A stretch of 64,000 nucleotides of DNA, taken from Escherichia coli. GTDB taxonomy: Bacteria; Pseudomonadota; Gammaproteobacteria; Enterobacterales; Enterobacteriaceae. A model generated the notes under the pieces. That model had not been told where the DNA came from. It saw nothing but the letters and a program-made list of their open reading frames with translations, and made no database searches. This document shows, piece by piece, positions 19,220-21,148 of the stretch. The DNA lies in the NCBI RefSeq assembly GCF_003334305.1, contig NZ_QOWS01000003.1, one strand, 5' to 3'. The position numbers were made by a program, and so were the translations under genes. Numbering within the stretch: the first letter of the stretch is position 1; the number at the start of each line of letters is the position of its first letter.

Positions 19220-19993
19220 TCATCGGCGTGTCCTCACTCGTTGACCAATTACCGCCGCGCCAATTGCGCCAGCAAATTGCGCATCAGGATGGGTATTTAC
19301 CGGCATTCCCAGATGAGATTCCAGCATCCGGGCAAACGTCTGGCAATGACTAACGCCACCAGTAAACAGAATCGGCGCTTCACAGGAGAGACGAGCAATG
19401 AAATTGGCACTCCTCCGCGCCATCGCGTTAATCACTCCGGCGAGAATCGCTTCTGGCGCGACGCCCGCTGAGCGCAGGCTGATCACTTCTGATTCGGCAA
19501 ACACTGTGCACATACTCGTGATGGCGTGCGGCGTGACATTTTCGGTAATGCTGTCGAGTTGCTCGACGCTGGTGCCAAGCGTGCGCGAGATCACCTCCAG
19601 GAAACGCCCGGTGCCCGCCGCGCATTTGTCATTCATCAGGAAATCGCACAGGTTACCGTCATCATCAAGCTGAATCACTTTGCTGTCCTGACCACCGATG
19701 TCGATTACCGCGCGCGTTGCTGGCGCAAGAAACCGTGCGCCCAGCCCATGACAGGAGATTTCCGTCACTTGTTTATCGGCAAAATCCACCAGTTGCCGTC
19801 CATAGCCGGTGAGCGTCAGAAACGGCGTTGTCTCTAACCCTTCGCGCAGAGTTTCCCAGGCTTCAGTAATTGCTGTTGCCGGACGAAAGGGTGTTGGAAC
19901 GAGGAAACGGCGCGTAATCACGCCGTCTGCCAGTAAGATCCCTTTGGTGGCGGTAGAACCAGAATCAATGCCAATCGAATATGTCACTGCCAC
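19220..19993 (-). CDS. yjiL: BadF/BadG/BcrA/BcrD-type ATPase (2-hydroxyacyl-CoA dehydratase activator-like)
   Basis: 257-aa ORF; N-terminal IGIDSGSTATKG ASKHA-fold ATPase motif and conserved cysteines typical of HgdC-like activators. Confidence 0.85.
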   Translation of the reverse strand: MAVTYSIGIDSGSTATKGILLADGVITRRFLVPTPFRPATAITEAWETLREGLETTPFLTLTGYGRQLVDFADKQVTEISCHGLGARFLAPATRAVIDIGGQDSKVIQLDDDGNLCDFLMNDKCAAGTGRFLEVISRTLGTSVEQLDSITENVTPHAITSMCTVFAESEVISLRSAGVAPEAILAGVINAMARRSANFIARLSCEAPILFTGGVSHCQTFARMLESHLGMPVNTHPDAQFAGAIGAAVIGQRVRTRR

Positions 19994-19996
19994 TCC

Positions 19997-21148
19997 TTAC
20001 AGCATCTCAATAAAGGCCGCGACACGGGTACTGAGCTGCCCGACATCTGAGGTGGAGTAGTCTGTTTCAATAGCGATATAAGGAATGTTGTGCTGCTGAC
20101 GCACATGACGTTTAATCGCCAGCGATTCCACCGCGTAGGTATGGCACGCCTGCAAAATCACATCAACTACGCCATCGACCTGATATTCTTCCACCATCTG
20201 GCTGAGCATTTGCAGGCGCTGATCGTTCGGCGAAACACAGGAGCAGCCAATCGCCAGATATTTATCCGCCAGTGCGTCGTAGACATCGCCCGTTTCTGCC
20301 ACGCATTGCTCGGTCGCTTTCGCCCCGGTGCAGTTTTCATAACCGACAACCCAGCCGCCATTCTCTTCAATCGCGCGCACCACTTTTTCTGCTGCGCCGC
20401 CAATCGGGCAGCCGGTGATTAAAATGCGTGGACGCGGGTCCAGTCGCTGGCCTTCTTCCCACTGCTGACGAACGCGGGCTGTCATCGCGTCCAGTTCATT
20501 GATCAACGCCTCTTTATCGAACCGGAATGTTGCGCCGTAAACCACTTTCAGAATGTCGCTGCCGCTAAGCGCCGGAGGATTTAACTGCCCAAGATGATAA
20601 AAATTAGCCAGTGCGCGACGTTCGCGGTTTTTCAGAGCAATGGCATCGCGCAGAGCATCTTCGCTAATCTCGTGCCCAAAACGTTCTTCTACCGTTTTTT
20701 GCAAGCGCAGCATCTCGGCTTTCCATAACGCACGCGAGGTATCGTCCTTAACGCTGTTCGGCAGCTGCATCACATGAACGGGCTTAAACTCCGCCATGTA
20801 TTCATACATTTTCTTTTTGCCGTCGCAGGTGGTTTCACCGACCACCAGATCAGAAAAGTAGAAGTAGGGGCATTTATCGGTTTTGCCGAAGCCGTAGCTG
20901 CTTTTAATCAGCGGGCAGAGGTTGCGCGGCAGATCTTTCTCCGCTTCTTCAATGGTTTCATCAGAGGTGGAACAGAGCGAAACCACAACCGCACCGGCTG
21001 CCATCGGGATCTCTTGCGGCATAAAGGTGCAGTAAGTGCCAACCAGCGGAATGCCGCGCTCCTTGAGATCCATGACGGTGAGAAAGCCTTTCTGGCGAGC
21101 TTCAGAGAACTGATCGAAAATGGCGGGTAGATCGGTGACAAGTGACAT
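19997..21148 (-). CDS. yjiM: 2-hydroxyacyl-CoA dehydratase-like protein (HgdB/HadC-like component)
   Basis: 383 aa from MSLVTDLPAIFDQF; cysteine-containing dehydratase-like sequence; 3-nt gap to yjiL suggests an operon. Confidence 0.85.
   Translation of the reverse strand: MSLVTDLPAIFDQFSEARQKGFLTVMDLKERGIPLVGTYCTFMPQEIPMAAGAVVVSLCSTSDETIEEAEKDLPRNLCPLIKSSYGFGKTDKCPYFYFSDLVVGETTCDGKKKMYEYMAEFKPVHVMQLPNSVKDDTSRALWKAEMLRLQKTVEERFGHEISEDALRDAIALKNRERRALANFYHLGQLNPPALSGSDILKVVYGATFRFDKEALINELDAMTARVRQQWEEGQRLDPRPRILITGCPIGGAAEKVVRAIEENGGWVVGYENCTGAKATEQCVAETGDVYDALADKYLAIGCSCVSPNDQRLQMLSQMVEEYQVDGVVDVILQACHTYAVESLAIKRHVRQQHNIPYIAIETDYSTSDVGQLSTRVAAFIEML

Follow-up and report, generated by a model that had tools for sequence, protein, structure and literature searches.

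Few systems spend ATP to drive electrons below the redox window usual in biology; after nitrogenase-type enzymes, double-cubane cluster proteins (DCCPs) are one of them. In DCCP, six cysteines, with a seventh alongside, ligate an [8Fe-9S] cluster; the mechanism has been described (PMC7317905 and PMC9351452), the protein reduces acetylene, hydrazine and azide in vitro, and papers from 2018 to 2025 still call the natural function of DCCPs unknown. Here we analyse a stretch of 64,000 nucleotides of the Escherichia coli contig NZ_QOWS01000003.1 (the window), which carries yjiM, yjiL and a third gene, ytiA. The family identification of YjiM is not new, since it is already in RefSeq, which names the yjiM product a double-cubane-cluster-containing anaerobic reductase, and in the literature: a 2020 review by Jeoung, Martins and Dobbek (PMC7317905) lists YjiM/YjiL as a putative class II DCCP system, class II being without the channel-closing helices and suggested to act on a larger substrate, and the preprint of Haft has E. 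coli YjiM in NF040772, listed as uncharacterised. An initial annotation of this DNA had said that the physiological reaction of the pair is not established, with which literature to 2025 agrees, and that an existing assignment would count against its own proposal, a dehydratase-like enzyme. Such an assignment exists in part, through the RefSeq name and the review, as a putative class II DCCP system only.

We find that yjiM-yjiL-ytiA make up a self-contained, anaerobically induced three-gene cassette, in which the conserved unit is the trio together with its own promoter (Table 1). We propose that this cassette is a double-cubane reductase system with selenium or sulfur species on YtiA as its substrate, an explanation to which, taken as a whole, we give a probability of roughly one in two. 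Its parts differ in strength. Homology makes it highly probable that the enzyme is an ATP-driven reductase of the DCCP/DCCP-R type, and YtiA is likely to be a functional third component; the choice of a selenium or sulfur species as substrate is tentative.

The initial annotation had read the pair as an ATP-dependent radical 2-hydroxyacyl-coenzyme A (CoA) dehydratase-like system. The profile searches it had suggested placed YjiM in Pfam HGD-D (E = 1.2e-121) and YjiL in BcrAD_BadFG (E = 1.3e-76), and the superfamily, an HGD-D protein with an activator of the HgdC/BcrAD type, was correctly recognised. The enzyme type was not: YjiM passes NCBIfam NF040772 (double-cubane-cluster-containing anaerobic reductase) with 531.7 bits against a cutoff of 350, over profile positions 1-372 of 372, and stays below the cutoffs of the dehydratase subunit models, with 94.3 bits against 700 for HadC and 20.1 against 750 for HadB. 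Among solved relatives, DCCP (6ENO/7YYL) is matched with E = 4e-75, BzdN with 2.7e-19 and the beta subunit of 2-hydroxyacyl-CoA dehydratase with 5e-13. The AlphaFold model of YjiM (predicted local distance difference test, pLDDT, 94.7) superposes on DCCP 7YZM_A with a template modelling score (TM) of 0.94 normalised by the query and 0.85 by the target, a root mean square deviation of 1.7 Å and 37% identity. The same model gives a TM of 0.88 at 19% identity with HadC, and of 0.85 with BzdN/MbdN.

The cysteines of YjiM tell the same family. In an alignment of 34 sequences (YjiM and 33 representatives of 33-49% identity), exactly six are invariant, C40, C78, C108, C273, C302 and C335, and a seventh, C59, predicted to be a non-ligand, is conserved at 90% or more. 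YjiM cysteines line up with those of DCCP in the phmmer alignment; Cys40, Cys78 and Cys108 are predicted to ligate one cubane of an [8Fe-9S] cluster, and Cys273, Cys302 and Cys335 the other. The published 7-Cys motif (PMC7317905), taken as a literal regular expression, has no match in YjiM: the spacers X29 and X32 are exact, and the others are slightly shorter, off by at most about 4 residues. YjiM lacks the N-terminal extension of about 40 residues found in the Carboxydothermus DCCP and in several longer representatives. The 64-kb window holds one HGD-D open reading frame (ORF), one BcrAD ORF and one DUF3343 ORF, and, in agreement with the initial annotation, no CoA ligase or CoA transferase is annotated in it. 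On the strength of NF040772, the best solved relative, the cysteines, the fold, the single HGD-D ORF and the lack of an annotated CoA-activating gene, we read the YjiM sequence as that of a double-cubane family member and not of a 2-hydroxyacyl-CoA dehydratase, and by analogy the single catalytic gene implies a homodimeric YjiM. The representatives were used for diversity, the top 120 matches of a word-index search with YjiM being enterobacterial orthologs only. One of them, the metagenome protein P0242 (722 aa), is YjiM-like over residues 1-383 (51% identity) and continues for about 340 residues. Its size equals that of a YjiM, YjiL and YtiA fusion, an idea that we rejected on finding that the C-terminal part matches neither YjiL nor YtiA; this part ends in a helix-turn-helix-like stretch, and the protein is either a regulator fusion or a gene-calling artefact.

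YjiL is, by its profile and motif matches, an ASKHA-fold ATPase of the HgdC/HadI/BcrAD/DCCP-R type. It passes TIGR00241 (364 bits, cutoff 125) and aligns end to end with HgdC (8e-53), HadI (2e-52), MbdQ (1e-50) and DCCP-R (7YYL_E, 5e-47) from the PDB, in alignments that include the nucleotide-binding motif IGIDSGSTATKG near its N-terminus. The two cluster-bridging cysteines, in MNDKCAAGTGRF and SMCTVFAESE, align with HgdC and HadI; they are Cys122 and Cys160 in the 255-aa numbering, or Cys124 and Cys162 in the 257-aa reading. Both the ASKHA motif and the conserved activator cysteines had been pointed out by the initial annotation. YjiL is predicted to be a homodimer with one bridging [4Fe-4S] cluster, injecting electrons in an ATP-dependent manner. 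Since it is about equally close to all these activators, the sequence of YjiL alone is mute on the type of its partner.

The yjiL and yjiM ORFs are real and match RefSeq gene models at the positions first given for them, yet their order had been misread: yjiM was said to lie 3 nt downstream of yjiL, whereas on the minus strand, which carries all three genes, transcription runs yjiM > yjiL > ytiA and the gap between yjiM and yjiL is 9 nt with the RefSeq start of yjiL. This start is the second GTG, at 19987, served by an AAGGAG Shine-Dalgarno that shares bases with the stop codon of yjiM. The third gene had been missed altogether in what was described as a two-gene unit. It sits between yjiL and yjiK. 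The 4 nt ATGA hold both its start codon and the yjiL stop, an overlap by which we judge that ytiA is translationally coupled to yjiL.

YtiA matches Pfam PF11823 (Se_S_carrier/DUF3343; E = 4e-13), and its gene is annotated by RefSeq. The carriage of selenium or sulfur on the DUF3343 cysteine is putative, the family name coming from comparative genomics only. Four residues, F8, P34, C41 and G42, are invariant in 29 YtiA homologs, down to 12% identity. In the AlphaFold model (pLDDT 91.6), YtiA folds into a small beta-alpha-beta-beta-alpha-beta-beta domain with Cys41-Gly42 at the end of the long loop joining strands 2 and 3; searching the PDB with the YtiA sequence gave chance-level matches only, and a fold search gave weak PII-like or ferredoxin-like matches (TM about 0.5), none with E of 0.001 or less. 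YtiA evolves faster than YjiM, identity among enterobacterial homologs being 55-99% for YtiA against 86-99% for YjiM. Enterobacteriaceae YtiA also contains, at codons 41-50 (window 19076-19103), the pattern C41-G-L-C44-x4-C49-P, a partial ferredoxin-like CxxC...CP around the one cysteine that is invariant in the family. Hafnia, Morganella, Aeromonas and most homologs from Firmicutes lack C44, and C49 is missing from Morganella and from a single Klebsiella pneumoniae homolog; the pattern could reflect a lineage-specific redox or metal chemistry.

The trio is conserved well beyond this strain. Of 5426 complete E. coli genomes, 5387 have the region 18900-21300, and several match it with 100% identity. 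The three genes are intact in Klebsiella michiganensis and Atlantibacter hermannii (HGD-D, 383 aa; BcrAD, 255 aa; Se_S_carrier, 83-84 aa), where the carrier gene again overlaps the ATPase gene by 4 nt. The order yjiM > yjiL > DUF3343 was found in 10/10 gammaproteobacterial loci, counting one genome per species (Escherichia, Superficieibacter, Citrobacter, Cedecea, Hafnia, Morganella, Aeromonas and a proteobacterial metagenome-assembled genome), and in each of the 12 gammaproteobacterial loci that were examined the DUF3343 gene comes after that of the ATPase. The flanks, in turn, change: the Atlantibacter cassette has a manganese catalase gene on one side and genes for a pyridine-nucleotide disulfide oxidoreductase, rsmJ and an M3 peptidase on the other, with no major facilitator superfamily (MFS) transporter called within 8 kb, and Klebsiella has, 2.5-5 kb upstream and past three other genes, genes for a DUF445 protein and an MFS transporter. 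The initial annotation had named the E. coli neighbours yjiK, yjiJ, yjiN and mdtM rightly; the uncharacterised membrane-protein cluster that it took as context is incidental, because the trio is kept while these surroundings change. On the other side of the Klebsiella cassette (L001 10239-12506) an M20 peptidase gene and two 'Gate'-domain genes follow directly on the opposite strand, and E. coli has on the same side (13652-15978) iadA-yjiG-yjiH, with yjiK, yjiJ and kptA inserted between; this likeness looks like a remnant of an older synteny.

The cassette also brings its own anaerobic promoter of the FNR type. The last 85 nt or so before yjiM are conserved across enterobacterial genera that have different upstream genes, and the DNA further upstream is unrelated. 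We infer the exact FNR site from this comparison: the ATCAA half-site of the FNR-like box is nearly invariant across genera, and Citrobacter has at the same position TTGTTGCACATCAA, with 1 mismatch. Given that the -10 element lies 23 nt downstream, the centre of the box would be near -41.5/-42.5, as in class II FNR promoters. Scanning the 115-bp yjiN-yjiM gap with the FNR consensus at up to 2 mismatches returned no box, a generic promoter and terminator scan did no better than on shuffled sequence, and an Rfam search of 18800-21400 gave no match; the hairpin in the 5' untranslated region (UTR) is not unusually stable compared to shuffles (z = -0.25). Published data point the same way as the comparison: yjiML is a directly FNR-activated operon by chromatin immunoprecipitation and expression in Myers et al. 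(PMC3688515), and yjiM rises upon oxygen depletion in O157:H7.

The proposed substrate comes from the genes that surround related loci. We took the 80 best loci of a species-level genome collection (49-96% identity to YjiM), called their ORFs and clustered the neighbours, scanning with DUF3343 and YjiL profiles built for the purpose. A YjiL homolog is found within 8 kb in 54-56 of the 80 loci and a DUF3343 gene in 24, in four different orders (M-L-D, D-L-M, D-M and M-D-L, for yjiM, yjiL and DUF3343). That the association persists while gene order is shuffled argues for a functional link of DUF3343 to the enzyme genes. Of the 70 non-gammaproteobacterial loci, 20 have one or more curated selenium markers, each scoring above its NCBIfam cutoff: the EF2568-type cysteine desulfurase, which is related to selenocysteine lyase, in 15, YedF in 9, the selenium-associated LysR in 8, SelD in 6 and YqeB in 4. 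By our own estimate, chance would give about 0.5% per marker, these being usually single-copy genes. Corrinoid methyltransferase clusters (MtaA-type methyltransferases, corrinoid proteins, activases) are present in 11 loci; MtaA passed its NCBIfam cutoff, and the corrinoid protein and activase matched below theirs. Beyond the ATPase, the recurrent families of the 80 loci are only selenium/sulfur-related or corrinoid methyltransferase genes.

These contexts do not come from a single group. In a neighbour-joining tree they are spread over at least 10 lineages, and selenium markers are found in 3/4 loci of Enterococcus, Agrilactobacillus and Listeria, which form the sister group to the gammaproteobacterial proteins. 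YjiM-clade loci of Firmicutes and Synergistaceae adjoin genes for SelD, YedF, the selenium-associated LysR, YqeB and the EF2568-type desulfurase, and a module of EF2568-type desulfurase > DUF3343 > ATPase > DCCP recurs (loci L073, L076 and L078; also L053-L055, L029 and L032). The genomic context of four distant representatives comprised contigs of 2-4 kb only. In the literature, Haft counts 955 of 970 DCCPs in SelD-containing genomes; STRING connects DUF3343 of Slackia with an 'activase' and a 'dehydratase subunit', next to selD, yedF and a selenocysteine lyase; and corrinoid clusters, among whose genes DCCP and DCCP-R are listed, have been argued to demethylate methyl-selenides. As a separate observation, four Firmicutes loci hold a second, divergent HGD-D paralog with a longer ORF (about 240-270 bits to YjiM): L029 5012-6406, L032 951-2264, L056 5304-6623 and L071 9299-10585. 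A DUF3343 gene follows it directly in 4/4, and a YjiL-like ATPase comes next in L029, L056 and L071, suggestive of a second DCCP-like subfamily with the same carrier and ATPase.

Homology to the solved systems suggests how the enzyme would work. A YjiL homodimer would hold a [4Fe-4S] cluster between its subunits and, with MgATP bound, dock on the homodimeric YjiM; nucleotide turnover would then drive an electron uphill into the [8Fe-9S] cluster of YjiM, beyond the reach of ordinary reductants, and the double-cubane cluster would reduce the bound substrate. Comparative genomics, and only that, suggests a selenium or sulfur species for this last step, and the invariant Cys41 of YtiA may bring the substrate or take the product away. 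For instance, carrier-bound or elemental Se(0) might be reduced to selenide for SelD-dependent pathways in anaerobiosis, the purpose being to supply SelD when E. coli makes its selenoprotein formate dehydrogenases anaerobically. In its most specific form, the cassette would be an ATP-driven selenium-mobilising reductase that turns dead-end selenium, either elemental or carrier-bound Se(0) or organically linked selenium, into selenide for SelD, using electrons far below ferredoxin potential and shuttling the atom on Cys41 of YtiA. We regard this specific form as doubtful.

Several points weigh against a selenium or sulfur substrate or against the explanation as a whole. To our knowledge, selenoprotein synthesis in E. 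coli is not reported to need these genes, which could thus provide at most an accessory route. Thiols can free selenide from perselenides, so that an ATP-driven low-potential electron has no explanation unless the substrate is Se(0)-like; for such a substrate it would make chemical sense, the Se(0)/HSe- couple having a very negative potential. The genomic association is partial: 56 of the 80 loci have no DUF3343 gene nearby, for which we used a profile that may miss divergent members, 50 of the 70 non-gammaproteobacterial loci have no selenium marker, the 80 loci are not phylogenetically independent, and the E. coli cassette is itself apart from the selD/sel, yedEF and yqeBC genes. Finally, the cluster type, oligomeric state and activity of the system are deduced by homology, and the literature yielded no experimental work on YjiM, YjiL or YtiA.

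The strongest competing explanation keeps the DCCP-type ATP-driven reductase and gives it an organic or small-molecule substrate unrelated to selenium or sulfur trafficking, in line with the class II idea, with YtiA in some other accessory role. Of the 70 non-gammaproteobacterial loci, 50 have no selenium marker nearby, DCCP does act on small nitrogen compounds and acetylene in vitro, and YjiM is without the extension that closes the substrate channels in the Carboxydothermus DCCP. Against it, genes for CoA ligases, CoA transferases or other acyl-CoA processing are neither annotated in the window nor recurrent among the neighbour families of the 80 loci, the families that do recur beyond the ATPase are those of selenium, sulfur or corrinoid methyltransferases, and DUF3343 is kept in every gammaproteobacterial cassette. 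On balance we consider this explanation unlikely, while taking it seriously.

A second alternative, which we find improbable, reads the same neighbourhoods as cofactor biosynthesis: YtiA and the homologs of desulfurase or selenocysteine lyase would be maturation factors supplying the bridging sulfide or selenide that joins the two [4Fe-4S] cubanes, and the selenium signal would then tell nothing of the substrate. The recurrent desulfurase-containing module fits it, a selenium-bridged cofactor is among the formal possibilities named by Haft, and related family members hold a [4Fe-5S] remnant with an extra sulfur. The absence of a nearby DUF3343 gene from most DCCP loci speaks against it, as does the assembly of the cluster when the Carboxydothermus DCCP was made in E. 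coli, a weak point given that E. coli has ytiA.

The dehydratase proposal, in which YjiM would be an ATP-activated radical 2-hydroxyacyl-CoA dehydratase or a benzoyl-CoA-reductase-like enzyme forming a ketyl radical on a CoA thioester, is largely refuted. Speaking for it are the two Pfam matches, a YjiL as near to HgdC and HadI as to DCCP-R, and the fold common to YjiM and HadC. The known enzymes, in contrast, are heterodimers of two HGD-D paralogs where the window has one; the HadC and HadB scores of YjiM are far below their cutoffs; its cysteines follow the six-plus-one pattern of DCCP and not a three-cysteine one; its identity is 37% to DCCP and 19% to HadC; and no CoA transferase or ligase appears in the window annotation.

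Very improbable, too, is that YjiL forms with the MFS pump MdtM a 'YjiL/MdtM' uptake system for proline-rich antimicrobial peptides, a label found in passages of reviews citing Krizsan et al.: YjiL is a predicted soluble Fe-S ATPase that is conserved together with YjiM and YtiA, no MFS gene adjoins the cassette outside E. coli, Atlantibacter having no MFS call within 8 kb and Klebsiella its MFS gene about 2.5 kb upstream past three genes, yjiN and yjiM lie between mdtM and yjiL, and, because mdtM is upstream of yjiL on the same strand, a yjiL insertion cannot be polar on mdtM, so the label probably reflects gene proximity and not shared function.

For the double-cubane reductase with selenium or sulfur species on YtiA, which we continue to prefer, E. 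coli is the most tractable organism in which DCCP function could be addressed: the cassette is near-universal there, FNR-controlled and with a putative Se/S carrier alongside, and the selenoprotein formate dehydrogenases offer an easy readout. If the selenium-mobilising form of this explanation were true, double-cubane proteins would gain a first physiological function and E. coli selenium assimilation a missing step. For annotation, a dehydratase label on yjiM is to be avoided, the operon includes ytiA, and the YjiL/MdtM transporter label of the antimicrobial-peptide literature is probably a misattribution.

Table 1. Genes and promoter elements of the yjiM-yjiL-ytiA cassette and its flanks, in positions of the 64,000-nucleotide window.
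Feature	Position	Strand	Remarks
mdtM	22585-23817	minus	MFS pump; RefSeq gene model
yjiN	21264-22544	minus	RefSeq gene model
yjiM	19997-21148	minus	383 aa; predicted catalytic component, class II DCCP
yjiL	19220-19987	minus	255 aa; alternative GTG start at 19993 (257 aa)
ytiA	18966-19223	minus	85 aa; DUF3343 / putative Se/S carrier
yjiK	18041-18901	minus	RefSeq gene model
yjiJ	16795-17973	minus	RefSeq gene model
Promoter and 5' UTR of the cassette	21149-21235	minus	cross-genus conservation
FNR-box-like site GCGAGAGAGATCAA	21222-21235	minus	cross-genus comparison; 3 mismatches in E. coli
-10 AATAAT	21193-21198	minus	23 nt downstream of the box; TATAAT in most genera
Hairpin CCCG-loop-CGGG	21160-21172	minus	invariant across genera; abuts the ribosome-binding site
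Shine-Dalgarno of yjiM	~21154-21159	minus	

Elsewhere in the window, a penicillin G acylase gene lies between yjiS and yjiA (about 27530-30070), a site whose K-12 counterpart we take to be the mcr-hsd-mrr restriction region. A 4-hydroxyphenylacetate (hpa) catabolic cluster is found between btsT and tsr (about 33900-45200), and the reference record NZ_CP026085 departs from the window at the hpa position and past about 51 kb.

Compared with known systems, the E. coli cassette is like DCCP/DCCP-R of Carboxydothermus hydrogenoformans (CHY_0487/CHY_0488; 6ENO, 7YYL, 7YZM), to whose DCCP YjiM is 35-37% identical with a TM of 0.94. Both have six ligand cysteines and a seventh, an adjacent ASKHA ATPase with two cluster cysteines, and the same NCBIfam equivalog. 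They differ in that YjiM, as a class II protein, is without the channel-closing N-terminal extension of about 40 residues, and in that E. coli adds a translationally coupled gene for DUF3343 and a promoter of the FNR type. The hosts are also different, a facultative enteric bacterium as opposed to a thermophilic carboxydotroph. With the 2-hydroxyacyl-CoA dehydratases (HadBC/HadI, HgdAB/HgdC; 3O3M, 1HUX, 4EHT) the cassette shares superfamily, fold and an ATP-dependent [4Fe-4S] activator. The HgdC/HadI type of activator is common to dehydratase, DCCP and benzoyl-CoA reductase systems and hence does not discriminate. In those dehydratases an alpha and a beta subunit pair up, each with one three-cysteine [4Fe-4S] cluster; their substrates are CoA thioesters, and CoA transferase genes lie next to theirs. 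They are unlike YjiM, which is a single gene product with double-cubane cysteines, 19% identity to HadC and scores below the family cutoffs. Like the subunit BzdN/MbdN of class I benzoyl-CoA reductases (8S02, 9G87), YjiM would have an [8Fe-9S] double cubane fed by a BcrAD-type ATPase. In BzdNO, though, the double cubane is an electron store feeding a separate catalytic [4Fe-4S]-OH2 subunit, BzdO, with a heterodimeric ATPase and a CoA ester as substrate, and the window holds no BzdO-like partner for YjiM. Lastly, the selenium neighbourhoods of DUF3343, YedF and selenocysteine lyase (Lin et al. 2015; Haft 2022; Kountz et al. 2023) are approached through YtiA, which has the invariant cysteine of the family, and the links of YjiM-clade loci to selenium genes agree with those described there; unlike them, gammaproteobacteria keep only the trio, with selD, yedEF and yqeBC elsewhere.

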